A stretch of 64,000 nt of DNA. Origin: Patescibacteria group bacterium (GTDB taxonomy: Bacteria > Patescibacteriota > Minisyncoccia > Phycocordibacterales > UBA1550). A program made the translations under genes and the position numbers. Location of the stretch: positions 85,240 to 149,239 of the forward strand of contig JBBUDU010000002.1 of assembly GCA_038057125.1 (NCBI GenBank). Reading direction: 5' to 3'. A model generated the notes under the pieces. The model searched no databases. It saw only the letters and a list, made by a program, of their open reading frames with translations, and had not been told where the DNA came from. This document shows positions 12,757-40,781 of the stretch, in pieces. The stretch's first letter is position 1, and the number at the start of each line of letters is the position of its first letter.

Positions 12757-12957
12757 GTAATACTCACACTTATCCACCGTCTTCTGTTGTAGGTGATTAA
12801 GATATCTTATATACTATTATATGTATAAGAGAGAGATTATTAGAATTGATTACTAGTTTAAAATATAACTGGGTACAATATTTCGACGGCATTCGGACGC
12901 TGTGAATGAGATTACTCACCCACGCGCTCCTCACTTGTCGAAATAATAACGAAACAT

Positions 12958-13719
12958 ATGAAAAAAAATATCAGTATTGCCCTCGTTGCTCTTTTCGCGC
13001 TCGGAGGGATCACAGCAAGTGCGCAAACGACAGGTGCAACAGGCACAACCAACACGGACGCCACAGTAGTGACACCTCGCGACCGAGCATCAGGCCTGCC
13101 AACAGGAAAAAGACAGCATAAGCCACTCTCTGTCACCAATGAAGAGCGTGAGAGAAGGAACGCTTCGTCAACAGTGCGCAGAGAGTTTCGTGATGAAAGA
13201 AAAGGCAATCGCGAGGAAATGGAAGCTCGCGCAAAGGCTCTCCGCGCATCAACCACAGCGGCACGAGCAAACATTAAAGACGAACAGCGCAAAAAACGCC
13301 TCGAGCAAGCGAGCAAGAAAATGGAGATAATAAGCAAGCGTATGCACGGAGCAATAGAGCGTGTGCAGAAACTTTCTGACCGTGTTTCTGAAAGACTTAC
13401 AAAACTTGAAGCAGCGGGCGTTAATGTAGCTGTTTCTCGCGGGCACCTTGCAGAAGCCAAAGCAAAACTCGATGAAGCACGCACAAAAGCTGCTGCCGTA
13501 AAGCTCCTGCTTGAGACCGCACTTTCAAATGCGACAGCAAGCACATCCACAAGCACGGCACCCAAAAACATAGTAAAGGGTATGCAAGATGCCGTTAAAG
13601 ATACAGTAAAAACGATTCAGGAAGCGCATCGCCATGTTGCCCTTGCTATCTCGTCGGTAAAACCAGGACAAAATAAGCCGCGCCCAGCTACAACAACGAG
13701 CGCAACAACTACTCAATAA
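12958..13719 (+). CDS. secreted Arg/Lys/Glu-rich coiled-coil hypothetical protein
   Basis: Signal peptide MKKNISIALVALFALGGITASAQ. Preferred over the antisense 219-aa ORF, which has an odd S/A/R composition. Confidence 0.6.
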   Translation: MKKNISIALVALFALGGITASAQTTGATGTTNTDATVVTPRDRASGLPTGKRQHKPLSVTNEERERRNASSTVRREFRDERKGNREEMEARAKALRASTTAARANIKDEQRKKRLEQASKKMEIISKRMHGAIERVQKLSDRVSERLTKLEAAGVNVAVSRGHLAEAKAKLDEARTKAAAVKLLLETALSNATASTSTSTAPKNIVKGMQDAVKDTVKTIQEAHRHVALAISSVKPGQNKPRPATTTSATTTQ

Positions 13720-18456: not shown

Positions 18457-18465
18457 GGCATTTTG

Positions 18466-18536
18466 TGCGGGATGGGAGAATCGAACTCCCGCCAAGAGTT
18501 TGGAAAACTCCTATTCTACCATTAAACTAATCCCGC
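18466..18536 (-). tRNA. tRNA-Gly (anticodon UCC)
   Basis: Hand-folded 71 nt: acceptor GCGGGAT/ATCCCGC, D arm GTTT-AATGGTA-GAAT, anticodon arm GGAGT-TTTCCAA-ACTCT, T arm GGGAG-TTCGATT-CTCCC. CCA is not encoded. Confidence 0.9.
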
Positions 18537-18636
18537 GATTAAAACCTCTCAAGACAATAGCAAAAGCACAGATGTTTCGCAAATATGTCCCCAAAACATC
18601 TGTACTACTACATACTACGACTGAAAGCCTGCCACT

Positions 18637-19521
18637 CTACCCAACAATCGATCGCACCTTCGTCACGATCTCGTCAAGCGTGAAGTTTGCCTTTACCATA
18701 AAGTCTTTTGCTCCAAGCGCCATTGCTTTATCGAGGTCTTCTTTCTGACCAAGGTTGCTCAAAATAACAACGGGAACGTCCATAATCTTTGGATCTGCTT
18801 TAATCCGCGCAAGAATTTCAAATCCATCTGTGCCGGGTAAAATAAGGTCACAGAGAATCATATTTGGCTTACGCTCAGACAAAATTGCAAACGCCGCCAC
18901 TGCGTCAATTGCGTTTTGAACATCAAACCCCTCACTCGCAAGCTTGCGCACCAAAAGCTCGCGCAAAAATTTGTCATCCTCAATAACAAGGATAAACTTT
19001 TTTTTGCCACCAGTTGATGGTGTTGTAACATCTGTCACGCCTTGCGACATTTTATAGACTGGGGCCTCTGCCACGGCTTCTGAAACCCCTGAGCTGTTTA
19101 CATTTTGTGTGCGCACACCCCATTCCCCTCTAGGAGCCGCGGCAACTCCTCCGAGTACGCGCTCTACTTTTTCAAGGACTTCGTTTGGGTCAAACACTGC
19201 TTTGATCAAAAATTCTCGCGCGCCAAGCTCTTGTGCTCGCTTTATCTCCACTGGTTGACCGGAATTTGAAATAATAATAACTGGAATATCGCGAAGTGTT
19301 GGATCTGCATGTATCTCTTCCAATACCTCAATACCACCCTTGCGCGGCATAAGGATATCCAAGAGCACGCAATCAGGCCTGACGGCGCGAATCTTTTCTA
19401 TGGCGACAATACCGTCCTCTGCTATGTCCACAACATAACCGCTCTTTTCAAGTTTTTGTGCAAGGACATCACGGAGTACCGCGTCGTCTTCCACAATGAT
19501 AATTCTTTTTTTCTCTTCCAT
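18637..19521 (-). CDS. response regulator with two receiver domains and no output domain
   Basis: Two REC modules (IIIVEDDAVLRD...VLLDILMPRKGG and ILVIEDDKFLRE...ILCDLILPGTDG). Confidence 0.85.
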   Translation of the reverse strand: MEEKKRIIIVEDDAVLRDVLAQKLEKSGYVVDIAEDGIVAIEKIRAVRPDCVLLDILMPRKGGIEVLEEIHADPTLRDIPVIIISNSGQPVEIKRAQELGAREFLIKAVFDPNEVLEKVERVLGGVAAAPRGEWGVRTQNVNSSGVSEAVAEAPVYKMSQGVTDVTTPSTGGKKKFILVIEDDKFLRELLVRKLASEGFDVQNAIDAVAAFAILSERKPNMILCDLILPGTDGFEILARIKADPKIMDVPVVILSNLGQKEDLDKAMALGAKDFMVKANFTLDEIVTKVRSIVG

Positions 19522-19612
19522 GATGATTCTGTGTTATTGAGGGTACTATTATTATAGTATAAAATTGATGTCTACGCTATCAAATTAACCTTCTGTATTA
19601 CTCCTGATCGCA

Positions 19613-21517
19613 TCATATGTTCTCTTTTTCTACCGCTTTTACCAACTCTCTTGGTAAAAGTTTTGCGATGACCGGAACCACAATAGTAAACGTTGTGCCT
19701 CCCCCCTCCACTGAATCAACCCAAATTTGCCCACCGTGTCTCATAATGATACTTTTCACGATAAACAAACCGAGTCCGGAGCCATCTGTTTGCAAGTGAA
19801 TAACGTTTGAGGCACGGAAGAATTTTGAAAACAGTTTCGCTATGTCTGCCTTTGGAATACCGACTCCGGAGTCGCTTACTTTCACTTCTACGAAGTCCCC
19901 TTTCTTTTCAACAGCTATCGTAACTTTCCCACCGGGCAATGTGTACTTCATCGCATTGTCAACGATGTTTTGAAAAGCAATAAGAAGTTTCTCGGGATCG
20001 AATGAAAAGTTATGAATATCTCCTGCGTGATTCACAAACTGTACTTCAACATTGCGCTCCTTTGAAGGGAGCTCTGTGTTTTCAACGAGGGTATTCAAGA
20101 GCTTCATAAAATCATTCTCTTCAAAATTATAACCAAACATTCCATTCTCAATACGCGAAACATTCAAGAGGTCGTTCACCAACTGAATCATTTTTTCGTT
20201 CGTCTCATACCCGCGCTTTAGCATCCCCTTTTGGTCATCATTTATTGCACCCAAATCCCCGTCGAGCAGAAGCTTGAGCACCCATTTTACGCCAGAAAGC
20301 GGCGTGCGGAGCTGATGCGCAGCTATGGAAATAAAATCAGACTTCAGTCTGTCAATCTCGCCCAAGTTTACCACCATCGAGTTGAACACATCTCCAAACT
20401 GCCCAATCTCATCGTTTGAGGTATGTTCTACTTTTTGACTAAGGTCTCCATCCGCAATCTTTCGCGCAACAAATGAATATCGTCGAATAGGCCCCACTAC
20501 TTGTCGTTCAAGGATTATCGAGAGCACAATCACGAGTATAGATGTAAAGACAACGCCGACACCGAGCAACCGGACACGAAATCCGCTGACACGGTTCTCA
20601 TAAGCGCTCTTCAATAAATGAGACTCCGACACGCCGACGATGCGAGAACCTTTTGCATTTTCAATCTTTATTGGTTTCACATACACGACAACCTCGTGTC
20701 CTTCGTGAATGCGTTCGTATTGCATGCTTTCTTTCGCTCCGGTCGCTATGTCGCGACGCGCTTGTATTTGTTCTTGGGTATCATTATCAAATTTTCTTGC
20801 GCCTTGTCCCATGTTTGCGAGAACATTAAGACTCGTATCGAGGACGACAAAATCGTGAAAAAACCCAAATTCGTCAGTTTTATTTATTTTCCCAAGCTGA
20901 GAAGCATCGTCAATAATTTTTTGCAGATACTGTGATCCGTCCTCAATTGCAATGTTTATTGCTCGTGTACTTTGCTCGACACTGGCTGAAGCAAGGTCTA
21001 GTAAACGTCTTGCCTCCAAAACGTCTTGCGAACTCTTAGACCTAGTCTTTACCTCTGTTTCAATAATATTAATAATATTATTATTGCCATCAAAAACTGG
21101 TGCGTAATGTTCAATCCTGTAATAATTTTCGTTTGTATTTGTTTTTGAAACAACCGCCTTGTTTTTAACAACCTCATTAATGGCCGCAAGTTTTGCCGCT
21201 ATGTCTTGCGGTGCGTCGCTTGAACGGGTTGTGGCAACATCAACTCCCTTTGTATCCAAAACTTCTATGTAGTTTACTCCGGAGATACGGCTTGCAAGTG
21301 TGTCTACAATCTCTTGAAGCGATCCCTTCTGTGCCGAAATCTGCGTAAACATACGTTCTACGTCTTTACGAACCAAATCTGTAACAGTACTGGTGTTGTT
21401 GATAACTTCGGTTTTTATATTTTTTGACTCAATTGTATCAATGATCCAAAATCCAAGAGTAAGAATGGTAACGACGACCACAACGAGCACAAGATTTATT
21501 TTTGTACCAAGCTTCAT
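19613..21517 (-). CDS. sensor histidine kinase (TM-sensor-TM-HAMP-HisKA-HATPase)
   Basis: HAMP (IADGDLSQKVEHTSNDEIGQF), H-box SIAAHQLRTPL, ATP-binding DSGVGIP / GSGLGLFIVKSI. Confidence 0.88.
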   Translation of the reverse strand: MKLGTKINLVLVVVVVTILTLGFWIIDTIESKNIKTEVINNTSTVTDLVRKDVERMFTQISAQKGSLQEIVDTLASRISGVNYIEVLDTKGVDVATTRSSDAPQDIAAKLAAINEVVKNKAVVSKTNTNENYYRIEHYAPVFDGNNNIINIIETEVKTRSKSSQDVLEARRLLDLASASVEQSTRAINIAIEDGSQYLQKIIDDASQLGKINKTDEFGFFHDFVVLDTSLNVLANMGQGARKFDNDTQEQIQARRDIATGAKESMQYERIHEGHEVVVYVKPIKIENAKGSRIVGVSESHLLKSAYENRVSGFRVRLLGVGVVFTSILVIVLSIILERQVVGPIRRYSFVARKIADGDLSQKVEHTSNDEIGQFGDVFNSMVVNLGEIDRLKSDFISIAAHQLRTPLSGVKWVLKLLLDGDLGAINDDQKGMLKRGYETNEKMIQLVNDLLNVSRIENGMFGYNFEENDFMKLLNTLVENTELPSKERNVEVQFVNHAGDIHNFSFDPEKLLIAFQNIVDNAMKYTLPGGKVTIAVEKKGDFVEVKVSDSGVGIPKADIAKLFSKFFRASNVIHLQTDGSGLGLFIVKSIIMRHGGQIWVDSVEGGGTTFTIVVPVIAKLLPRELVKAVEKENI

Positions 21518-21576
21518 ATTACTTTACAGTATACACCACTAATGGAGAAAAATGATTGGTGACATGTGGAGAATTG

Positions 21577-21668
21577 TGCCCTCATGAGGAGTCTGCCAAG
21601 CGCTCGCTCGACCCGTTTTGTTAAACGGGTAAACCCGAGCTCACTTTCGACTCCTCGTTCGCGCTACA
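21577..21668. other. degenerate tRNA-end-derived element next to tRNA-Arg(CCG)
   Basis: Starts with a 17-nt copy (TGCCCTCATGAGGAGTC) of the tRNA-Arg(CCG) 3' end. Contains GCGCTCGCTCGACCC, a hairpin ACCCGTTT-TGTT-AAACGGGT, and an inverted T-loop copy TTTCGACTCCTC. There is no closing acceptor complement. Confidence 0.45.
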
Positions 21669-21712
21669 AAAACATACTCCAAAAATGCTTCGCATTTGTT
21701 TCGTTCTTTTTG

Positions 21713-21784
21713 TGCCCTCATGAGGAGTCGAACCTCAATTACAAGCTTCGGAAGCTTGTGTCCTATCCGTTGAACGATAAGGGC
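21713..21784 (-). tRNA. tRNA-Arg (anticodon CCG)
   Basis: Hand-folded 72 nt: acceptor GCCCTTA/TGAGGGC, anticodon arm CAAGC-TTCCGAA-GCTTG, T arm TGAGG-TTCGACT-CCTCA. Confidence 0.88.
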
Positions 21785-21835
21785 TTTTTGGTACTGTGGT
21801 CCGTTGTACCACGAGCGCAGGTTTGGAAAAGTAGA

Positions 21836-22915
21836 CTAATTAATCTCAATGTCGATATGCCGCACCGTGGGTATTTCTTTTTTAATCCGCGCCTCAAGCT
21901 CGTCGATGCGCGTACCGATAACGCGCGGCACACGATCGGTAAACTCCACGCAAAAGCGCACAAACTCCTGATAGTCCTCTTTTGCGATTTCATAATCCTC
22001 TTTTAGCATTACACCATTTGAAACTTCTCGAAAAAGAGCCGAGCCATTTATCTCCACCTCGCACTTTGCTCGATATTTTCCAAGCTCCACGACAGATGAT
22101 TTAAAATCGTACACACGCTCAATCATTGGGTCAGATACGAGCATTTCAATAATACGATCTTTCACTTCTTCAGGAATTGATTTCTCCACTAAAAAACGTT
22201 TATTTTTTAATATCAAAACTACCGCGACCCAAGCCAAAAGCCCGCCGATAACAATAGAACCCATTGCGTCCCAAACAGGGTTGCCGGTAACGTACGAGAG
22301 TCCGACAGAAACAGTGGCGACAAAAATGCCAAATACAGCAACACCATCTTCATACACAACAGCAAGAACCGTCGGGTCGCCATCGCGAAGCGTGTCGCCA
22401 AGCGTTGTCCCGTCCCCTCTCTGGCTCCGCAATTCACGAAATGCAATCAAAAATGTAATAAGCTCAACAATAAACGAAATTGCAAGAATAAAAAATATTA
22501 TCGGTTCAAACACAAGCTCACTTGGACTAAAGAGTGTTGAAACACCGTGGTATATAGTAATACCGGCGCCTACAAAGAAAACTCCGCAGGCTGAAATAAG
22601 CGCCCAAAAGAAACGTTCTAGTCCGTATCCATAAGAAGAGTCCTCGTCTGGAGCACGACGGCTCTTCACAATACCAACCATCAGAAGCGCTTGATTGGCC
22701 GTGTCTGCAAAACTATGCACGGCCTCAGAAAAAAGAGAGCTCGACCCTGAGATGGCAAAACCAATGGTTTTAAGGATCGTAATAACAAAATTACCCAAAA
22801 GTGCCGCAATAACTGAAACAAAGCCGGGCTCACGTCTGTGGATAACTGACGATTTACCAAATTTCATGGCTTGGCCATGAATTATTCCACTATTAAGTTT
22901 TTCTTTTTTCTTCAT
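21836..22915 (-). CDS. cation diffusion facilitator (CDF) family transporter
   Basis: 359 aa with six TM helices, a HSFADTANQ motif in TM2, and a C-terminal cytoplasmic domain. Confidence 0.85.
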   Translation of the reverse strand: MKKKEKLNSGIIHGQAMKFGKSSVIHRREPGFVSVIAALLGNFVITILKTIGFAISGSSSLFSEAVHSFADTANQALLMVGIVKSRRAPDEDSSYGYGLERFFWALISACGVFFVGAGITIYHGVSTLFSPSELVFEPIIFFILAISFIVELITFLIAFRELRSQRGDGTTLGDTLRDGDPTVLAVVYEDGVAVFGIFVATVSVGLSYVTGNPVWDAMGSIVIGGLLAWVAVVLILKNKRFLVEKSIPEEVKDRIIEMLVSDPMIERVYDFKSSVVELGKYRAKCEVEINGSALFREVSNGVMLKEDYEIAKEDYQEFVRFCVEFTDRVPRVIGTRIDELEARIKKEIPTVRHIDIEIN

Positions 22916-22950
22916 ACATCGCTCTTACGAGCTCTTCCGGTTAAAGCCCT

Positions 22951-23123
22951 TGTCGGGGTGCCCTATGTCCAAGACAAGATTCTACTGAATCTGAATCCCC
23001 GCCTGCCACCGCCCAAAGTTACATAAGTAAAATACAACACCGCCATTTATATTCCAACTGTTTGTAGTATTGAAACTAACCCAATTTGCGGTTAGGCTTT
23101 GGCGGGCAGGGAACTCGGCCTAT
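22951..23123 (-). pseudogene. tRNA-Pro 3'-part pseudo-copy interrupted in the T-loop
   Basis: TGTCGGGGTGCC (22951-22962) and GAACTCGGCCTAT (23111-23123) are exact copies of 23259-23270 and 23278-23290. They are separated by 148 nt instead of 7 nt. Confidence 0.55.
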
Positions 23124-23260
23124 TTTGACGAGAGAGGAGCGTGTGGAAGTGTACCCACTTACACAACGTCCGAGCGATGTTAAAATATTGTACCCGTTAT
23201 ATCTAAATTTCTTATGGAAATTTCCACGGAAGCATCCAATGCTTCCGATTAAAAACTGTG

Positions 23261-23331
23261 TCGGGGTGCCGAGAATCGAACTCGGCCTATCTGCTCCCAA
23301 AGCAGACGTACTACCGATATACTACACCCCG
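23261..23331 (-). tRNA. tRNA-Pro (anticodon UGG)
   Basis: Hand-folded 71 nt: acceptor CGGGGTG/CACCCCG, anticodon arm TCTGC-TTTGGGA-GCAGA, T arm CCGAG-TTCGATT-CTCGG. Confidence 0.88.
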
Positions 23332-23344
23332 ACACAATTTTTAA

Positions 23345-23460
23345 TCCCAAAGCAGACGTACTACCGATATATAACTGAATACAATATATTCTGCGCTCGC
23401 TCGGAAATTAAAACTTGCTAGTTTTATTTCGCTCACTCGCTTGAATATACTACACCCCGA
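23345..23460 (-). pseudogene. tRNA-Pro 5'-half pseudo-copy with a 73-nt insertion in the D-loop
   Basis: A 27-nt exact copy (23345-23371 = 23295-23321) and a 16-nt exact copy (23445-23460 = 23317-23332). ATATA is present on both sides of the insert but only once in the intact gene. Confidence 0.6.
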
Positions 23461-23508
23461 TTTAAACTGTAAGTCATATCTTTAGTCTCGCGTGAAACCG
23501 TTACGGAA

Positions 23509-23991
23509 CTATAGCACGATATTATCTAAAAATCTAATGCGCGCTCGTCGATTTTTTGCGTCAATCTCCACCGTAATAGCATCAAAAATCCATTCAGGCT
23601 CCCCTTTTGGGTACTTTTCAAGCAAGTAAACTTGAATTGTCCGTGCCAGTCTCTTCAGTTTATGCTGGTGAATGTTATCTTCTGGTCGATAACTGTCCGT
23701 TACTGAATTAGCAAATTCTGAGTCAGCAGACTTCACGCCTGGGGCGCAGACCCTTGGGCGCAGGGAAACATTCACCTTATTACATAGGTCCGACCTATGT
23801 AAATTTTCACGTGAAACACTTTTTACCTCAATAAAATGGAGGATTTTACCTTTTTTGGCAATAATATCGATTTCCCCACATTTTTTAAGATAATTTTGCC
23901 CAATTACTAAAAACCCCTTATTTTGTAAGTATTTTACGGCAATATCCTCCCCCAAACGCCCTATTTTCTGCTTTTCTGTAGGTTCAGCCAT
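23509..23991 (-). CDS. yraN: YraN-family (UPF0102) endonuclease-like protein with ~35-aa internal extra segment
   Basis: GRLGEDIAVKYL...CGEIDIIAKKGKILHFIEVKS ... FDAITVEID. The track start is a TTG; the ATG at 23991 is preferred. Confidence 0.75.
   Translation of the reverse strand: MAEPTEKQKIGRLGEDIAVKYLQNKGFLVIGQNYLKKCGEIDIIAKKGKILHFIEVKSVSRENLHRSDLCNKVNVSLRPRVCAPGVKSADSEFANSVTDSYRPEDNIHQHKLKRLARTIQVYLLEKYPKGEPEWIFDAITVEIDAKNRRARIRFLDNIVL
23803..23818. promoter_or_regulatory. parS-like site (14/16 to TGTTTCACGTGAAACA) inside yraN
   Basis: ATTTTCACGTGAAACA; its palindromic core encodes VSRE in the yraN frame. Confidence 0.4.
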
Positions 23992-24038
23992 TACTACACA
24001 ATTATACCCAATGTTCAATGATTAACATAAAAAGAGTG

Positions 24039-24054
24039 TATTTCACGTGAAACA
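24039..24054. promoter_or_regulatory. parS-like site (15/16 to consensus)
   Basis: TATTTCACGTGAAACA, intergenic, upstream of yraN. Confidence 0.6.
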
Positions 24055-24359
24055 CCTCGTTTTTAGACTATATTTAGGTCGAAAACAAGCATTTTTCTAA
24101 AAACTCCATATTTATCAAGGGTTTCTTGGGTTTTAGGTGACAATTTTCCAATGTCTTGAATCTTAGTCTACTGGCTTTTTATGTCCTTTATCAACAGTAT
24201 CCACATAGTTATCCACAGTTTTGAGCTTTTTTCCCCATATTTTCCCGCTTCTGACCGTTGACAGGCTGTGTCAGAATAGTGGTTTTTGTGAAAAATGTCC
24301 TTTACAAAAAACTTATTGTACTGGTGCGGCTCTCGATAACGAACAATTGATTTTTTATT

Positions 24360-24433
24360 TGGTGCGGGTACGGAGAATCGAACTCCGATCTCGTCCTTGG
24401 CAAGGACGCGTTCTACCACTAAACCATACCCGC
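24360..24433 (-). tRNA. tRNA-Gly (anticodon GCC), CCA encoded
   Basis: Hand-folded: acceptor GCGGGTA/TACCCGC, anticodon arm CGTCC-TTGCCAA-GGACG, T arm CGGAG-TTCGATT-CTCCG, 3' ACCA. Confidence 0.9.
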
Positions 24434-24477
24434 AAACTTTCTCAACCATTATACATTTTTTTTATCTTTTTGGAAGA

Positions 24478-24618
24478 GCGCCCGGAGGGATCGGTCACGA
24501 ATATTTTTCTTGTCGTCACAAGAAAAATTTCTCGACCCCGACTCGCCCGTTTTTTCTGCTGAAAAAACATGGCTCCGTCTTTCGATTTACTCACGCGAGC
24601 TTTGCTCGCTCGGGCGCA
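24478..24618. other. tRNA-end-bounded structured element, Arg(UCG) locus (141 nt)
   Basis: The 5' GCGCCCG... pairs with ...CGGGCGC at the 3' end; these are direct and inverted copies of the tRNA-Arg(UCG) 3' end. It shares the blocks TCGGTCACGA, TCTCGACCCCG, CTCGCC, ATGGCTCCG and CTTTCGATT with Gly unit B. The hairpins between the blocks differ in sequence. Confidence 0.6.
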
Positions 24619-24620
24619 GA

Positions 24621-24654
24621 AATAATAAAAACCCCATCAGGGGTTTTTATTATT
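24621..24654 (-). terminator. hairpin between tRNA-Arg(UCG) and the element
   Basis: AATAATAAAAACCCC-ATCA-GGGGTTTTTATTATT. Confidence 0.6.
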
Positions 24655-24656
24655 TG

Positions 24657-24729
24657 TGCGCCCGGAGGGAATCGAACCCCCAACCCCTTGGTTCGAAGCC
24701 AAGTACTCTATCCGTTGAGCTACGGGCGC
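24657..24729 (-). tRNA. tRNA-Arg (anticodon UCG)
   Basis: Hand-folded 73 nt: acceptor GCGCCCG/CGGGCGC, anticodon arm CTTGG-CTTCGAA-CCAAG, T arm GGGGG-TTCGATT-CCCTC. Confidence 0.9.
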
Positions 24730-24818
24730 AAAAATTTGACAGGTTTCTCGTGAAACCTACACAGAGAGCATACCGCAAATTGGTAAAAAAGCCAAAAATA
24801 CACTAGACTATAACCTAT

Positions 24819-26309
24819 ATGATAGGCGCTTCAATAAAAACGAATATCTCGTACAAAATCCCTAAAGAAGTTTCACATGTAACCGAAACCTTGCGAAATG
24901 CAGGGTTTGAGGCGTATCTTGTGGGTGGATGCGTGCGCGACATCTTGCAGGAAATCAAGCCAAAAGACTGGGACGCAACAACAAACGCAACACCGGAACA
25001 AATCCAAGCCCTTTTTGAAAATTCTTTTTACGAAAACGATTACGGAACAGTTGGTATAGTAAATGAAACAGATGATGAAACACTTAAGGTTGTTGAAGTA
25101 ACTCCGTACCGAAGCGAAGGCGCATACACTGACAAGCGACGCCCGGATAGCGTTTCGTTTCACGGGAAACTAGACGAGGATCTAAAACGTCGCGATTTCA
25201 CAATTAACGCAATAGCGTATGATGAATCTAAAGGACATCTAACGGACATGTTTGGTGGTATAAAGGACATAAAGGACAAAGTCTTAAGGACAGTAGGGGA
25301 TCCAAGAGAACGCTTCAACGAAGATGCCCTCCGTGTCCTTCGCGCCGTGCGCCTTGCTACCGATCTTGGTTTCACGATTGAGATAGAGACTCAAAATGCA
25401 CTCACTGAAAAAGCTTCAGACCTGAAACATGTCTCTATGGAGCGTATTCGTGATGAATTCACCAAAATGGTAATGACAAAAAATCCAATGGTTGGCATTG
25501 TAATGTGCCAGAAACTTGGCATCCTTAAATATATTGCGCCGGATATCGAACGTGGGATTGGCATTGAGCAAAATGGCGACCATATTTACACCGTATGGGA
25601 ACACAACCTCCGCGCGCTCCAGCACTCGGCAGACCGTGGATGGCCGCTCCATGTACGACTCGGAGCGCTCTTTCATGATGTTTCAAAACCGGAAACACGA
25701 CGCTGGTCTCCCGAAAAAGACGACTGGACCTTTTATGGTCACGACGTAGTTGGCGGACGTGTTGCAAAAAAAGCTCTGGAAAATTTAAAATATCCTAAAA
25801 AAATCGTTGAGGTTGTGTCCGCGCTTGTGCGTTATCATTTGTTTTTCTCTGATATCGAAAAAATTACGCTTTCTGCGGTACGTCGTATTGTAAAAAACGT
25901 CGGACCTGACAATGTTTGGGACTTGATGAAAGTTCGAGCGTGCGACCGTATCGGCATGGGTCGTCCAAAAGAAGCGCCGTATCGTTTGCGTAAATATGAA
26001 TCAATGATTGATGAGGCGATGCGCGCGCCGGTGTCTGTGGGAATGCTCAAAATTGACGGGCAAAAAATAATGGAAGTTACCCATGAAACACCGGGGCCAA
26101 AACTCGGTTTTATCCTCCACGCGCTCCTCGAAGAAGTGCTTGATGACCCGGAGCGCAACACGGAAGTTTTTCTCGTGAAACGAACACTCGAACTCGCAAA
26201 ACTTCCGATTGATGAATTAAAAAAACTGGGGGAGGAAGGTAAGGAGAAAAAAGAAGAGGAAGAGGAAAAAGAGCTCGCTGTGATTCGCAAGCGTCATGGA
26301 GTAAAGTAA
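24819..26309 (+). CDS. cca: CCA-adding enzyme / poly(A) polymerase family nucleotidyltransferase with HD domain
   Basis: LVGGCVRD, RRDFTINA, HD motif FHDVSKP. Lys/Glu-rich C-terminal tail. Confidence 0.88.
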   Translation: MIGASIKTNISYKIPKEVSHVTETLRNAGFEAYLVGGCVRDILQEIKPKDWDATTNATPEQIQALFENSFYENDYGTVGIVNETDDETLKVVEVTPYRSEGAYTDKRRPDSVSFHGKLDEDLKRRDFTINAIAYDESKGHLTDMFGGIKDIKDKVLRTVGDPRERFNEDALRVLRAVRLATDLGFTIEIETQNALTEKASDLKHVSMERIRDEFTKMVMTKNPMVGIVMCQKLGILKYIAPDIERGIGIEQNGDHIYTVWEHNLRALQHSADRGWPLHVRLGALFHDVSKPETRRWSPEKDDWTFYGHDVVGGRVAKKALENLKYPKKIVEVVSALVRYHLFFSDIEKITLSAVRRIVKNVGPDNVWDLMKVRACDRIGMGRPKEAPYRLRKYESMIDEAMRAPVSVGMLKIDGQKIMEVTHETPGPKLGFILHALLEEVLDDPERNTEVFLVKRTLELAKLPIDELKKLGEEGKEKKEEEEEKELAVIRKRHGVK

Positions 26310-26368
26310 AATAAAAATAAAGGACCGACCTTAAGAATTAAAAAAGGTCGGTCCTTTATTTTTATTTT
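26308..26368. terminator. bidirectional terminator between convergent cca and xth
   Basis: 23-bp perfect arms AAAATAAAAATAAAGGACCGACC / GGTCGGTCCTTTATTTTTATTTT. Confidence 0.75.
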
Positions 26369-27129
26369 AACTCTAGCACAATAGGGCAGTGGTCGGAGCC
26401 GAGAAAATCGCTCATGATGGTGACTTTTTTTACGCGAGGAAGGAGATCAGAGCTAATAAAAAAATAATCAATACGCCAGCCGACATTGCGATCGCGAGCA
26501 GAAGACTTTATATCCCAATATGTGTACGCATCGCGAACGTGTGGATGCAAGTGGCGATAAATGTCCATGTAGCCGTGATAGATAAGCTCATCGATCCACG
26601 CACGTTCTTCAGGCAAGAAACCGGTGCTTTTTTCATTTTCTTTTGGGCGGGCGAGGTCGACTGCTTCGTGTGCAGTATTCACATCGCCACATATGATAAT
26701 CTTTTTGCCACGCTTTCGAAGTTTTTCTATAAACTTCAAAAAATGGTCATAAAATTCAAGTTTGTACTTTAAGCGCTCTGGCCCGCCGCCCCCGTTTGGG
26801 AAATAGCAATTCAAAAGGACAAAGTCGGGATAATAAAGGACAATGAGTCGACCCTCTTGGTCCATGTCCTTTACACCCATTCCTTCCTCAACCTTTTCGG
26901 GTTTTGTTTTTGTGTACACCGCTACCCCGCTATATCCTTTGCGCTTTTTTGAATGTGAAAAATATGCGTGGTAGCCTCTTGGCGTGCGCACTTCTTCCGT
27001 AAGTTGTTCTGCCTCTACTTTTGTTTCCTGAAAACACAGGATGTCAAAATCTTTTTTAATGATGTCAGCAAAATTGCCCTTCTTGTGAATCGCGCGCAGT
27101 CCATTCACATTCCAAGAAATAAGTTTCAT
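26362..27129 (-). CDS. xth: exodeoxyribonuclease III
   Basis: MKLISWNVNGLRA ... SDHCPIVLEL. Confidence 0.92.
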   Translation of the reverse strand: MKLISWNVNGLRAIHKKGNFADIIKKDFDILCFQETKVEAEQLTEEVRTPRGYHAYFSHSKKRKGYSGVAVYTKTKPEKVEEGMGVKDMDQEGRLIVLYYPDFVLLNCYFPNGGGGPERLKYKLEFYDHFLKFIEKLRKRGKKIIICGDVNTAHEAVDLARPKENEKSTGFLPEERAWIDELIYHGYMDIYRHLHPHVRDAYTYWDIKSSARDRNVGWRIDYFFISSDLLPRVKKVTIMSDFLGSDHCPIVLELK

Positions 27130-27569: not shown

Positions 27570-28505
27570 TTACCTCCCTTTACCATGAAACTTTTTATGC
27601 ACATTACGAAGCTCACTATCGGTGATGTGGGTATAAATTTGCGTTGTGGAAATGCTTGAATGACCGAGCATCATTTGCACCGAGCGAATATCCGCGCCAT
27701 TGAAAAGCAAGTCAGTTGCAAAACTGTGACGCAAAATGTGAGGTGTAACCTTATCCATAATGCCGGCTTTTGCGGCGTAGAATTTTACCATACGTTCTAC
27801 CGAGCGAGGACTGAGACGAAGTGAACCGTCATCGCGACCACGCTTCATTTCACTCACAAAGAGCGCATCATCCATGTCGGTTCTCTTTTTTAAGTATGCG
27901 TTAATTGCTTTCTTTGCTACGTCTGCAATAAACACAACGCGTACTTTTTCACCCTTACCGCGCACAGATATTTCGTCGCGGCTTAGGTCAATGTCACGTC
28001 CGAGCGCGCACAATTCTGAAAGACGAAGCCCTGTGGAAAAGAAAAGTTCGAGGATTGCTTTATCGCGAAGCTCTTTTATATCGTCGCCATTGGGCGCATC
28101 GAGAAGTCGTCTCAAATCCTCTCCAGTCAGAAGGTCAATCGTACGCTCGGCAACTTTTGCGAGTTCAATTTTTTCCGGAGCATAAGACTCAATTCCACGC
28201 TTGCGCAAATACTTCAAAAAACTTCGAATGGCGATGAGATAATAATTTTGTGTTTTCTTTTTGAGTGTTTCATGGCGACCTTCACGAACGCCTGCGTCTT
28301 GGCGGTTAAGCCACAATCTAAAAGAGCGTATGACATCGTCTGTAATATCACTTGGCTTTTTTGCGCCGCTTGCCATAAAAAAGCGAACGAGGTATCGTTC
28401 ATAGTTCTCAATGGTTTTTAAACTCCGCCCGCGCTCGATTTCCAAATATTCTAAATATTGTCGTGCGAGTGTGCCAAGGGGAGAGGATGGAATATTGTGC
28501 GACAT
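27570..28505 (-). CDS. tyrosine recombinase, XerC/XerD-like
   Basis: HILRHSFATDLL, LGHSSISTTQIYTH. The ATG at 28505 is preferred over the GTG at 28523. Confidence 0.85.
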   Translation of the reverse strand: MSHNIPSSPLGTLARQYLEYLEIERGRSLKTIENYERYLVRFFMASGAKKPSDITDDVIRSFRLWLNRQDAGVREGRHETLKKKTQNYYLIAIRSFLKYLRKRGIESYAPEKIELAKVAERTIDLLTGEDLRRLLDAPNGDDIKELRDKAILELFFSTGLRLSELCALGRDIDLSRDEISVRGKGEKVRVVFIADVAKKAINAYLKKRTDMDDALFVSEMKRGRDDGSLRLSPRSVERMVKFYAAKAGIMDKVTPHILRHSFATDLLFNGADIRSVQMMLGHSSISTTQIYTHITDSELRNVHKKFHGKGR

Positions 28506-28568
28506 GTAAATACAGTATACCACCGTAGACTACTAGCAAAAACGTTTCATCTACGCTAGAATCTTCTT

Positions 28569-38783: not shown

Positions 38784-40781
38784 ATGGAACATCTCAAGCA
38801 CCTCAATGAAAAACAAAAGGAAGCGGCTCTTCACAAAGAAGGACCGATTCTCATAATCGCTGGCGCAGGTACCGGAAAAACAAGCACGCTCACACACCGA
38901 ATCCTGCATATTATTAAAGAAGGTGTCCCGCCAAGCGAGATTCTTGCAATCACATTTACAAACAAAGCCTCAAAGGAAATGCAGGAACGCGTGAACGAGC
39001 TTCTTTTAAAACACGGCTTCGATGTCGGTATTCGCTACGGCCTGCCCGCCACTGCCTATCGCTCAAAAGAAGAAGTAGGGCGATGGCAGGCTGGTGATTC
39101 GCGTCCTTTTATTGGCACATTCCACTCGCTCGGTGTTCACATTCTCCGCGCACATGCGCAGATTTTCGGTCTTACGAAACATTTTACTATCGTCGACAAA
39201 AATGGCGCAAGTTCACTTATTAAAGAAGCGGTGAAGGAGCAGGGTATTGATTCAAAACAATTTTCACCAGACCGAATCGCTGGTGTCATCTCACGCCAAA
39301 AAGGCGCGCTCATTACACTTAATCAATATAAAAGTGATGTCGGAAATGCATATTTTCCAATGATTGTTTCGGCAGTATGGGAAAGGTATGAAAAACTTTT
39401 GGCGCGCGAAAGGGCGCTAGACTTTGACGATCTTATTTTAAAAACGGTTATCCTTTTGCGCGACCATCCTGAAATACGCGAGGAATACCAAAGACGCTGG
39501 AAATATATTCACATAGATGAGTACCAAGACACCAACACTGTGCAGTACGAAATGGCGCGCTTGCTTGCGGGTGCAAAAATGAATATATGCGCGGTGGGAG
39601 ACGGTGACCAAAACATTTACAGTTGGCGTGGCGCAAACCTGCAAAACATTTTGAATTTTGAAAAAGACTATGCGGGCGCGCAAACAATTCTTCTAGAGGA
39701 AAATTACCGTTCAACGCAAACAATTCTTGCCGCCGCAAACGACGTCATTAAAAAAAATACGGTACGAAAAGAAAAAAATCTTTACACGAGAAACGCCGAA
39801 GGAGATAAAATTTCTCTTATCGAAAGTTACGATGAAGGCGGGGAAGCGCGCACTATAGGAGAAAAAATTAAAAATCTTATTGATAGCGGGACTAACCCAG
39901 AAAATATTGCGGTGCTATATCGTGCAAACTTTCAGTCGCGCGCGCTCGAGGAAGCGTTCCTTATCATGGAAATCCCTTATCAAGTCCTCGGTGTGCGTTT
40001 TTTCGAACGAAAAGAAGTAAAGGACATTCTCTCCTTCATTCGCGCGGCGCTAAACCCCGAAAGTCTATCGGACATTAAGCGCATCATCGACTCGCCACCC
40101 AGAGGAATCGGCAAAGCGACACTTGTGAAAATGTTTGCAAAAGACGAAGCGAGCCTGACTCCCGCTGCGCAAAAACGCGTGAATGAATTCTGGGTACTCC
40201 TCGCTTCTATCCAAGAGTACGCACTTGTAGAAAAAACTTCAAAGCTCATTAAATTTGTTTCAGAAAAATCAGGAATTGAAGCGTCGCTTAAAACAGGGAC
40301 CGATGAAGACAATGACCGTCTAGAAAATATCCACGAGCTCGTGACCCTTGCGACCAAGTATGACATTCTGCCTCCCGAAGAAGCAGTTGAAAAACTTTTA
40401 GGTGACGCGGCGCTTGCGAGCGACCAAGACTCAATGATTAAAAGCTCGCGCGCTGTAAAACTCATGACCGTCCACGCGGCAAAAGGGCTTGAGTTCCCTT
40501 ATGTATTTGTCACGGGGCTTGAGCAAGACCTTTTTCCTCATAAACGAATGAGTTCGGGGACTGTATCAAAAGAAGACAGTGAGGAGGAGCGCAGACTTTT
40601 CTACGTCGCCATCACGCGCGCAAAGAAGAAACTTTATCTCTCATATGCATCCGTGCGCACGATTTTCGGACAGCGTCAGGTCAATGCGCCATCAGAGTTT
40701 CTCTCCGACATCGACGACGCCTACACCGAACGCGAAGTTGTAGACAACGACAGCGAACCAATAGTACGGATAGATTGGTAG
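38784..40781 (+). CDS. pcrA: UvrD/PcrA-type DNA helicase
   Basis: AGAGTGKT, DEYQDTN, ENYRST, VHAAKGLEF, YVAITRAK. Confidence 0.92.
   Translation: MEHLKHLNEKQKEAALHKEGPILIIAGAGTGKTSTLTHRILHIIKEGVPPSEILAITFTNKASKEMQERVNELLLKHGFDVGIRYGLPATAYRSKEEVGRWQAGDSRPFIGTFHSLGVHILRAHAQIFGLTKHFTIVDKNGASSLIKEAVKEQGIDSKQFSPDRIAGVISRQKGALITLNQYKSDVGNAYFPMIVSAVWERYEKLLARERALDFDDLILKTVILLRDHPEIREEYQRRWKYIHIDEYQDTNTVQYEMARLLAGAKMNICAVGDGDQNIYSWRGANLQNILNFEKDYAGAQTILLEENYRSTQTILAAANDVIKKNTVRKEKNLYTRNAEGDKISLIESYDEGGEARTIGEKIKNLIDSGTNPENIAVLYRANFQSRALEEAFLIMEIPYQVLGVRFFERKEVKDILSFIRAALNPESLSDIKRIIDSPPRGIGKATLVKMFAKDEASLTPAAQKRVNEFWVLLASIQEYALVEKTSKLIKFVSEKSGIEASLKTGTDEDNDRLENIHELVTLATKYDILPPEEAVEKLLGDAALASDQDSMIKSSRAVKLMTVHAAKGLEFPYVFVTGLEQDLFPHKRMSSGTVSKEDSEEERRLFYVAITRAKKKLYLSYASVRTIFGQRQVNAPSEFLSDIDDAYTEREVVDNDSEPIVRIDW

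Follow-up and report, generated by a model that had tools for sequence, protein, structure and literature searches.

The gene for tRNA-Pro(UGG) in a 64,000-nucleotide (nt) stretch of a Patescibacteria contig, hereafter the window, lies between interrupted copies of its own two halves. Copies of its 5′ parts occur upstream only and copies of its 3′ parts downstream only. Related layouts recur across many Patescibacteria: a complete, stalk-borne tRNA lies within the anticodon loop of an older copy, and as many as three layers can be stacked. This arrangement, which we call a nest, differs from known scars of mobile DNA at tRNA genes, which are tandem and derive from large integrase-bearing elements. 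The nest follows the replacement logic of tRNA-targeting elements but fails their defining features, because it has no integrase, is nested and includes 5′ copies. The reading that we favour, with a probability of just under 0.6, is that a stalked cassette inserted into a resident tRNA-Pro gene and that small elements inserted into the locus afterwards.

Anatomy and recurrence of the tRNA-Pro nest

In the window and in relatives, the gene order is UPF0102, tRNA-Pro and a cation-efflux gene, and the intergenic region that holds the nest in the window is 593 nt long. Read on the tRNA strand, this region carries a 5′ piece, a 73-nt insert, a further 5′ piece, a leader, the intact tRNA, a trailer, two hairpins (H1 and H2), an element of ~90 nt, a 3′ piece, a 113-nt insert, GATTC, a two-hairpin module, GGCACCCCGAC, the outer trailer and the start codon (Table 1). 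We refer to the outer halves as the 5′ shell and the 3′ shell. A repeat search and small-word blastn recovered all four exact copies (27, 16, 13 and 12 nt) that had been listed in a first-pass annotation, a model's reading of the letters. The 12-nt copy (22951-22962, equal to 23259-23270) extends to 29 nt at 83% identity with the 3′ trailer included, and the match at 23111-23123 extends to 24 nt at 79%. Any exact match of at least 12 nt to the tRNA arose in the flanks in 0.2% of 5000 shuffles, and the locus has four such matches, all collinear and of correct polarity. The inner leader and trailer belong to an inverted repeat, I1, in which 23247-23268 and 23325-23346 are complementary at 95% over 22 nt. 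Joined together, the outer pieces had been said to rebuild a tRNA-Pro that lacks only the 3′ strand of the anticodon stem. GCAG of that strand is indeed missing, but two nucleotides (TC) of the 3′ T-stem strand are missing as well, and because of these gaps the shell cannot yield a tRNA. The AGAT that follows H2 overlaps shell tRNA positions 40-43. Since anticodon-stem and T-stem nucleotides are missing in every species, we rejected the outer pieces as a functional tRNA with multiple introns.

Relatives having the same gene order, labelled like other metagenome loci by L and a number, display all stages of this anatomy. Simple genes with a complementary leader and trailer (GTCGAAATTCTTGT / ACAAGGATTTTGAC) are found in L023, L025, L026 and L028. 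A clean single nest is present in L022, where an outer leader is followed by a 5′ copy ending in ..CTGCGTGGGG, the inner leader GTTGAAGCTTTTGT, the tRNA, the inner trailer AAAAGCTTTAAC, H1 and H2; the end of H2 (..TTTAGAT) then leads into a 3′ copy from AGGCCGAG to CCCCGAC and the outer trailer. In this nest the outer leader pairs with the outer trailer and the inner leader with the inner trailer. L027 has two layers and L135 up to three, with leader/trailer pairs that match in onion order. One-sided forms also occur, as L030 keeps the 5′ copy alone and L031 the 3′ copy alone. The working tRNA of each has a leader and a trailer that have ceased to match, precisely the outcome expected if the inner gene underwent homologous recombination with a piece of its shell. 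Decay is under way in the D-loop region of the L007 5′ copy, and L147, in which the cation-efflux gene has been lost, has no 3′ copy. Nests are found in other gene neighbourhoods as well (L101, L122, L135 and L146). In L122 the shell and inner tRNA parts are identical, while the flanks are unrelated (a 50-bp stalk versus none). Compensatory pairs distinguish the shell alleles from the inner ones in L135 and L078, where the shell halves are still complementary to each other. The nest layout is common to species whose flanking protein is just 72-87% identical, in part with shared derived changes, and is not a recent accident of this genome. The first-pass annotation had proposed an older gene split in its anticodon loop by a ~210-bp segment with a complete tRNA-Pro. 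The cross-species comparison supports such a split, with L022 as the clean form and L027 and L135 as onions. The segment itself is 221 nt today, but ~90 nt of it are a later insert and the original cassette would have been ~146 nt.

The polarity of the copies is strict across loci. A 27-nt pattern, the 3′ part of the tRNA, retrieved 119 loci from metagenomes, and strict block matching at the 90 distinct tRNA-Pro loci with enough flank found 5′ parts upstream at 16, 3′ parts downstream at 16 and both at 11, with wrong-side fragments at none of the 90. The 5′ copies are specific to tRNA-Pro, being present at 16 of these 90 loci versus 1 of 151 other tRNAs (Fisher p = 7e-7); the lone non-Pro case, at tRNA-Gly of L116, was discarded as an A/T-rich chance match. 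Genes for tRNA-Pro(CGG) and tRNA-Pro(GGG) also have 5′ and/or 3′ partial copies (L099, L115, L111 and L118), and in L099 and L115 the loop of the 5′ copy is of the UGG type (TTTGGGG) though the inner tRNA reads CGG. In the surveyed nests the 5′ copy stops at TTTGGG(G/A) and the 3′ copy restarts at about position 40. An earlier suggestion that insertion at tRNA genes is repeated and targeted to loops fits this wider survey.

The nest is well supported at the assembly level. The window contig (ERZ1292624) spans the whole region, and the flanking protein is encoded by a 305,862-bp contig from the 0.1 µm fraction of the Hainich groundwater metagenome. The same 593 nt are also spanned by L004 (ERZ1292616), from a second Hainich sample taken at another well, and by L006 in the Logan assembly ERR3858110; these two are mutually identical over the region and differ from the window by 2 single-nucleotide polymorphisms (SNPs). 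A chimeric or collapsed contig could have been suspected from two further assemblies that end within the tRNA (L002 and, judged from coordinates, L005), breaks that the repeats would cause. However, the mis-join check called for in the first-pass annotation shows the locus crossed by three independent assemblies from different samples and assemblers with no more than 2 SNPs, and homologous layouts exist in more than 20 other genomes, which together rule out an assembly artefact. Homologues of the flanking protein are labelled Yonathbacteria, Parcubacteria or Patescibacteria; the window is a Yonathbacteria-like Patescibacteria contig and its host an ultra-small groundwater bacterium. A phage origin of the window was rejected because megablast of 20000-27000 against a phage collection gave no match and the window's proteins are ordinary bacterial ones, such as RNase Y, a two-component system and the CCA-adding enzyme.

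Table 1. Features of the tRNA-Pro nest and its immediate surroundings, in window coordinates.
Feature	Position	Strand	Remark
Putative extended -10 box TGcTATAGT, overlapping the UPF0102 stop codon	23508-23516	-	found by eye
5′ shell, part 1: tRNA positions -1 to 15 (acceptor 5′ strand, D stem)	23445-23460	-	16 nt identical to 23317-23332
73-nt insert in shell D loop, antisense to the tRNA	23372-23444	+	nhmmer family match 23364-23451 (+)
5′ shell, part 2: D loop to anticodon loop (11 to A38), ending TTTGGGA after G37/A38	23345-23371	-	27 nt identical to 23295-23321
Inner leader (5′ stalk strand), 13 nt	23332-23344	-	inverted repeat I1
Intact tRNA-Pro(UGG)	23260-23331 (ARAGORN); 23261-23331 (Rfam, 61.9 bits)	-	no CCA encoded
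Inner trailer (3′ stalk strand)	23247-23259	-	
Hairpin H1 (CGGAAGCAT TGG ATGCTTCCG), directly after the stalk	23227-23247	-	folds in ~20 loci
Hairpin H2 (GGAAATTTC CATAA GAAATTT), then AGAT	23205-23225	-	
Second member of the 73-nt family, ~90 nt, tRNA-sense, between H2 and 3′ shell	23117-23207	-	nhmmer E = 4e-23
3′ shell, part 1 (ATAGGCCGAGTTC): variable loop, T-stem 5′ strand, start of T loop	23111-23123	-	13 nt identical to 23278-23290
113-nt palindromic insert in shell T loop (CCTGCCCGCC...GGCAGGCGGG)	22998-23110	.	predicted hairpin, long and imperfect, -37 kcal/mol
GATTC, remainder of shell T loop	22993-22997	-	
Two-hairpin module, 30 nt, in shell T arm (GATTC AGTA GAATC; TGTC TTG GACA)	22963-22992	-	
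3′ shell, part 2 (GGCACCCCGAC): end of T stem, acceptor 3′ strand, discriminator	22952-22962	-	exact copy of 23260-23270
Outer trailer and small hairpin (GAGCTCGTAAGAGC), immediately 5′ of the cation-efflux start codon	22916-22951	-	matches outermost trailers of L020 and L022
Cation-efflux gene	21836-22915	-	Pfam Cation_efflux

Stalk helix, small inserts and conservation of the unit

In 12 of the 14 species with conserved gene order, tRNA-Pro is flanked by the stalk, a 14-15 bp helix that prolongs the acceptor stem to a total of ~22 bp; no stalk-like helix was found around the tRNA-Arg and tRNA-Gly genes of the same loci. About one third of all collected tRNA-Pro loci have a stalk, including every anticodon-loop nest, where it emerges directly after G37/A38 of the outer copy. 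Among 32 loci, 14 of the 15 stalk pairs vary on both sides. These loci were chosen for pairing, and the percentage paired is therefore not evidence on its own. Under a strand-symmetric criterion (at least 10 of 15 strict Watson-Crick pairs), the remaining non-Watson-Crick cells are G·T in 50 cases versus A·C in 7 (p = 4e-9), and this excess of G·T indicates that selection acts on pairing within the tRNA-sense transcript. H1 and H2 fold in about 20 loci with differing sequences, and compensatory changes in them are seen by eye between L007, L022 and L013. For the L022 nest, RNAfold predicts a double-decker structure (z = -11.2), in which the outer stalk and acceptor stem would enclose the inner stalk, cloverleaf, H1, H2 and the outer T arm.

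This composite is likely transcribed as one unit. The putative promoter box at the end of the UPF0102 gene, for which the motif TGnTAT(A/G)(A/G)T is found at the corresponding place in most relatives, would be the start of a single transcript covering the whole nest. A promoter and terminator scan of the locus gave counts not above shuffles, and no terminator was found in it between the tRNA and the cation-efflux gene. We infer a single transcript for the whole region, cleaved by RNase P and RNase Z and probably also by RNase III. An action of RNase III on the stalk is suggested by its 22-bp size, like that of ribosomal RNA (rRNA) leader-trailer helices. Pairing that extends the acceptor stem reportedly hinders RNase P binding (PMC9433436).

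The shells themselves are interrupted by small inserts that belong to recognisable families. The 73-nt insert is flanked on both sides by ATATA, which occurs once in the intact gene, and it belongs to a dispersed family of ~75-90 nt (ATATAAC..TACAATAT..CTCGGA..hairpin) with copies at window 12859-12946 and 23117-23207 and in L007, L013, L024, L027, L064, L090, L102 and L147 (nhmmer). The D-loop site is uninterrupted in the 5′ copies of L013, L022, L030 and L147 and filled in L024, L027 and L090. The second member within the nest, 76% identical to window 12863-12945, is missing between H2 and the 3′ shell in L007, L020 and L022. The central hairpin, the only hairpin feature noted in the 73-nt element, varies by compensation between species. 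Family copies often sit just 5′ of genes, as does the third window copy (12859-12946, plus strand), directly 5′ of the open reading frame (ORF) 12958-13719, and a copy in L007, directly 5′ of the CCA-adding enzyme gene; the element could be a portable promoter plus leader, or a small RNA gene. The two copies in the nest are inverted relative to each other and bracket the inner cassette; RNAfold pairs them, and both are also jointly present in L024, L027 and L090.

The T-loop position has a more composite history than had been thought. What was first described as a 148-nt T-loop insert is a real interruption, but it consists of the 113-nt palindrome, the five true T-loop bases GATTC and the 30-nt module. 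The 113-nt palindromic element is lineage-specific: a 55-nt relative occupies the same T-loop position in L027, and the site is empty in L013, L020 and L090, with no clear duplication. Another 55-nt palindromic relative lies in frame (~18 codons) at window 39041-39095, within an ORF for a UvrD/PcrA-type helicase (38784-40781, plus strand). The two-hairpin module is older than the 113-nt insert and is present in the outermost 3′ copy of L013, L020, L024, L027, L029, L031 and L090, with compensatory stems and variable loops. Short hairpin arrays of the same type (GAATC AGTA GATTC; CATC TTG GATG) are also found between the UPF0102 stop codon and the nest in L020, L022, L024 and L028, and a similar array lies downstream in L147. 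The claim that the old gene was hit twice more, in the D and T loops, thus holds for the D loop, but at the T loop two separate additions replace the single hit. The ATATA target-site duplication of the 73-nt insert stands, with its 5-nt flanks, empty sites in relatives and copies elsewhere; the proposed search for further copies found both families elsewhere in the window and in relatives, and the comparison with relatives found empty D-loop and T-loop sites. In copy number, duplication and empty sites, the small inserts fit miniature inverted-repeat transposable elements (MITEs) or palindromic elements: both families have several dispersed copies, and the 73-nt insert has both a duplication and empty sites while the 113-nt insert has empty sites only. 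Rfam searches of the inserts returned tRNAs only, or spurious hairpin matches far below threshold.

The unit bounded by the shells is conserved well beyond neutral expectation. The window and L090 have the same nest and cation-efflux proteins that are 72% identical, with fourfold sites of the cation-efflux gene at 43% and the spacer just 5′ of the shell at 32% as neutral reference. Identity is 86% in the 5′ shell with its D-loop element, 92% in the inner leader, 88% in the trailer and hairpins, 93% in the first 60 nt of the 90-nt element and 96% in the 3′ shell part, and it begins at the first shell nucleotide and stops at the last. A purely decaying relic therefore does not fit. The high identity comes from selection on the composite RNA, from transfer of the shell-bounded unit among lineages, or from a combination of the two.

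Origin of the nest

The nested topology, strict polarity and matched leader/trailer pairs are most simply explained by cassette insertion. In such a scenario, a cassette of ~146 nt consisting of a leader, a complete tRNA-Pro, a trailer, H1 and H2 would have entered a resident tRNA-Pro gene that had its own complementary leader and trailer, just behind G37/A38 at the 3′ edge of the anticodon loop. The cassette tRNA would have taken over the function, and the old halves would remain as the 5′ shell upstream and the 3′ shell downstream. In the transcript, the inner leader and trailer pair and lengthen the acceptor stem to ~22 bp, a helix that RNA-level selection keeps. Later, one member of the 73-nt family would have entered the shell at its D-loop position with duplication of ATATA, a second member would have inserted 5′ of the 3′ shell, and the 113-nt palindrome would have entered the T-loop position, where the older two-hairpin module already stood. 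Homologous recombination between the direct repeats could delete one side or the whole nest, and in some lineages cassette insertion may have been repeated and followed by collapse through recombination. A nest, once present, might also spread and gain layers through homologous recombination in which its two half-tRNA shells serve as arms.

We infer this origin from comparison of the loci, and the cassette possibly came from another lineage. The alleles of L135 and L078 and the flanks of L122 favour such a foreign source, although compensatory evolution of the inner gene could also have produced these alleles. An opposite nesting order of two cassette types was considered as proof of mobility and dropped, as the outer trailer of the window is of the outermost-trailer type of L020 and L022 and does not belong to the other cassette type. 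A cassette made as a copy of a primary transcript, from start site to terminator, was also rejected: the promoter-like box lies 16 to ~95 nt 5′ of the outer leader in L020, L023, L026 and L028, so that transcription does not begin where the cassette does on its left side. For L029, a cassette bounded by the base of the stalk, like an RNase III product, is possible. More speculatively, the stalked cassette may be a previously unrecognised selfish or self-propagating unit. A complete nest could then move from genome to genome and gain layers, homing with its shells as arms against any intact tRNA-Pro gene, or a dedicated loop-specific activity could carry out the insertion; cleavage of the double-decker transcript would fall to RNase P, RNase Z and RNase III. 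A host could then not lose the cassette, because the resident gene is disrupted at 37/38 while the cassette supplies its own tRNA.

Several observations weigh against cassette insertion. The machinery for insertion was not found: the cassette is free of ORFs, and the closest gene resembling an integrase (27570-28523, Phage_integrase) is 4 kb off and outside the repeats. Pattern scans of viral contigs for the cassette gave no match, on which ground a viral or plasmid carrier was rejected. A kilobase-sized body between the tRNA and its 3′ copy is present in none of ~120 loci, so that we also rejected integration of a large element that would separate the tRNA from a remote 3′ copy. No clear target-site duplication surrounds the cassette, where AGAT or GGG microhomology is all that is seen, and 3-6 nt of the target are lost at its junctions. 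The inner and outer leader/trailer pairs are related in sequence pattern, which keeps a local duplication among the possible origins. In addition, the old 5′ copies share a derived change (GCGTGGGG) yet are nearly identical to the inner tRNA at positions 1-30, and to account for the conserved shell one has to invoke gene conversion, horizontal spread or a functional composite RNA under selection. Finally, the loci were gathered with a 27-nt tRNA-Pro pattern and are not a random sample.

Among the alternatives, the one that we take most seriously, though with clearly less confidence than cassette insertion, is that the composite is itself a functional RNA. The shells, stalk, H1, H2 and module would form a conserved double-decker precursor, whose outer acceptor/T-arm top half and stalk would direct cleavage by RNase P, RNase Z and RNase III and which might also shape the 5′ end of the downstream mRNA. 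Selection would hold the layout whatever its origin, so this explanation is compatible with insertion. Consistently, sequence change in the stalk, H1, H2 and the two-hairpin module has left their pairing intact, variation in the module falls in loops and at positions compatible with wobble pairing, folds of high stability are predicted, and the unit is 86-96% identical between the window and L090 against neutral values of 32-43%. The shell acceptor halves of L135 and L078 are complementary despite differing from the inner tRNA. However, many relatives manage without a nest, in simple or one-sided forms; the stalk is missing in L030 and L031 and is thus not essential, the L007 copy decays, and horizontal spread would also give high identity across hosts.

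A local tandem duplication of tRNA-Pro and its flanks into two or three copies, followed by deletions that left the upstream copy without its 3′ half and the downstream copy without its 5′ half, and by gene conversion that held the remnants close to the intact gene, is unlikely. The GT[CT]GAA..T..TGT pattern shared by inner and outer leaders and trailers speaks for it, as do the exact identities of 27, 16 and 31 nt, which fit gene conversion. But at least two duplications and two deletions would be required, with ends exactly at the base of the stalk and the end of H2, repeatedly, and the wrong-side fragments that the model predicts are absent from all 90 loci. This gene neighbourhood also has no tandem full copies of one isoacceptor, the flanks of L122 are unrelated despite identical tRNA parts, and the layered alleles of L135 and L078 are heterologous. 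Still less probable are scars of attachment (att) sites, left by integrase-mediated integration of prophages or islands of which nearly all has since been lost. Classical integration sites are indeed tRNA genes, with a downstream copy of the 3′ part as the usual signature, and other tRNAs here carry short downstream copies of their own 3′ ends. Integrating elements also leave documented tRNA fragments (PMC9897764, PMC3293823). The difficulty is topological: a crossover in the anticodon loop with an element-borne tRNA part yields tRNA, element and 3′ copy, a crossover with a complete element-borne tRNA yields two chimeric tRNAs, and neither gives an upstream 5′ copy with nested leader/trailer matches. 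The repeats also have no integrase inside or beside them, none of ~120 loci has a kilobase remnant, and viral contigs gave no match.

Placing the nest among known systems underscores what sets it apart. It resembles tRNA-targeting integrative elements, such as prophages, integrative and conjugative elements and genomic islands, in having a tRNA as target and the anticodon and T loops as hit positions, in that sequence borne by the insert rescues function while the old part stays as a direct repeat, and in that events stack. A downstream direct repeat of the tRNA 3′ part is present (22952-22962, 22993-22997 and 23111-23123). Unlike in those elements, the insert is ~146 nt long and gene-free, it carries a complete tRNA with paired leader and trailer and not a 3′ part alone, both old halves are kept, and the copies are nested, not tandem, with 5′ parts upstream and 3′ parts downstream. 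No integrase is associated with the nest: there is no integrase ORF in 22916-23508, and none was seen in relatives. The closest published case that we found is the tRNA-Thr(GGU) locus of Caldiarchaeum subterraneum, where a 5′ fragment lies upstream of the intact gene beside a recombinase-bearing element and varies at the population level (Sugahara et al. 2012, PMC3293823). It shares the upstream 5′ fragment and the population-level variation with the nest, but it is archaeal, the 1.8 kb in between encode a recombinase, its introns are removed by archaeal splicing, and it has neither nested leader/trailer pairing nor a 3′ shell. No published description of nested tRNA genes was found in the literature searched.

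The nest also differs from introns and from split genes. Introns at position 37/38 in archaea and eukaryotes, and group I introns in the anticodon loops of Patescibacteria tRNAs (Nakagawa et al. 2026, PMC13011429), likewise interrupt the 3′ side of the anticodon loop and are closed by a helix. In the nest, the outer exons cannot be joined into a foldable tRNA owing to their missing nucleotides, with the same gap in relatives, and the insert itself holds a working tRNA. Rfam at gathering threshold and at E <= 5 finds only the tRNA at the locus and no group I core; the incomplete exons and the lack of such a core indicate that this is not an intron. Nor is it a split or permuted tRNA as in archaea and red algae, because an intact tRNA-Pro is present between the pieces. 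Leader-trailer helices of rRNA enclose a stable RNA and are cut by RNase III (PMC10250234), and the ~22 bp of the nest are of RNase III substrate size, but the helix here encloses a single tRNA. The small inserts recall bacterial MITEs and the Rickettsia palindromic elements, the latter reportedly described by Ogata and colleagues in 2000. The 113-nt and 55-nt elements are short, non-coding and dispersed, one in frame in a UvrD gene and others in the remnant of an RNA gene, and the 73-nt element comes with a duplication of 5 nt and with sites that are empty in relatives. The sequence families differ, however, mobility here is deduced from presence and absence only, and no transposase is known for the window elements, for which no search aimed at one was made.

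To our knowledge, a leader-trailer helix is not a usual feature of bacterial pre-tRNAs. The genomes of Patescibacteria are tiny, and persistence of non-functional DNA in them is not expected. If the cassette moves, it would be a minimal replacement-type element and a new route for horizontal exchange of essential RNA genes. If the composite is functional, it would represent a new architecture of bacterial pre-tRNA and pose the question of its processing by RNase P, RNase Z and RNase III in organisms without many standard RNases. In practice, tRNA half-copies and loop inserts break assemblies and can mislead tRNA annotation in metagenome-assembled genomes.

Tails of other tRNAs and neighbouring genes

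Tails of a different kind, ~115-185 nt long, follow 28 of 151 non-Pro tRNAs (~19%) and some tRNA-Pro genes (L133, L131, L120, L067, L080 and L076). In the window they are located at 24478-24655, behind tRNA-Arg(TCG) (24656-24729), and at 21578-21711, behind tRNA-Arg(CCG) (21712-21784); L013, L022, L025, L057, L099 and others have them too. In the examples read, a tail usually has a terminator-like hairpin and an antisense copy of the T loop and T stem, sometimes with the acceptor strand. It then has a conserved structured core (e.g. GGGAAGGGGTCGGGGAAAC..GTTTCCCCGTGGAGGAAGG) and ends in a sense copy of the last 14-17 nt of its tRNA. A tail resembles a minihelix of acceptor and T arm that matches its own tRNA and carries a large insert, and Rfam contains no matching family for it. 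If the cassette is indeed a selfish unit, these 3′-end minihelix elements, behind about one fifth of other tRNAs, could be part of the same biology. In L004, a strain 99% identical to the window, a 175-nt tail element at tRNA-Gly(GCC) (2289-2463) is flanked by the 15-nt direct repeat TCTCCGTACCCGCAC, while the tRNA-Gly(GCC) of the window (24360-24433) is a simple gene with encoded CCA and without the 175-nt element. This difference is a recent gain or a precise loss.

The UPF0102 gene (23509-24018, minus strand) encodes a YraN-like protein with a PD-(D/E)xK nuclease fold, and its Pfam match in the window ORF covers residues 23-73 only, equal to profile positions 1-47 of 80. Judged by eye from the conserved 3′ end of the coding sequence, UPF0102 lies directly 5′ of tRNA-Pro in nearly all Patescibacteria loci inspected, nested or simple. 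An encoded CCA is missing in four of the five window tRNA genes, tRNA-Gly(GCC) being the sole exception, and the tRNA cluster is adjoined by the gene for the CCA-adding enzyme (window 18465-24729 and 24819-26309).

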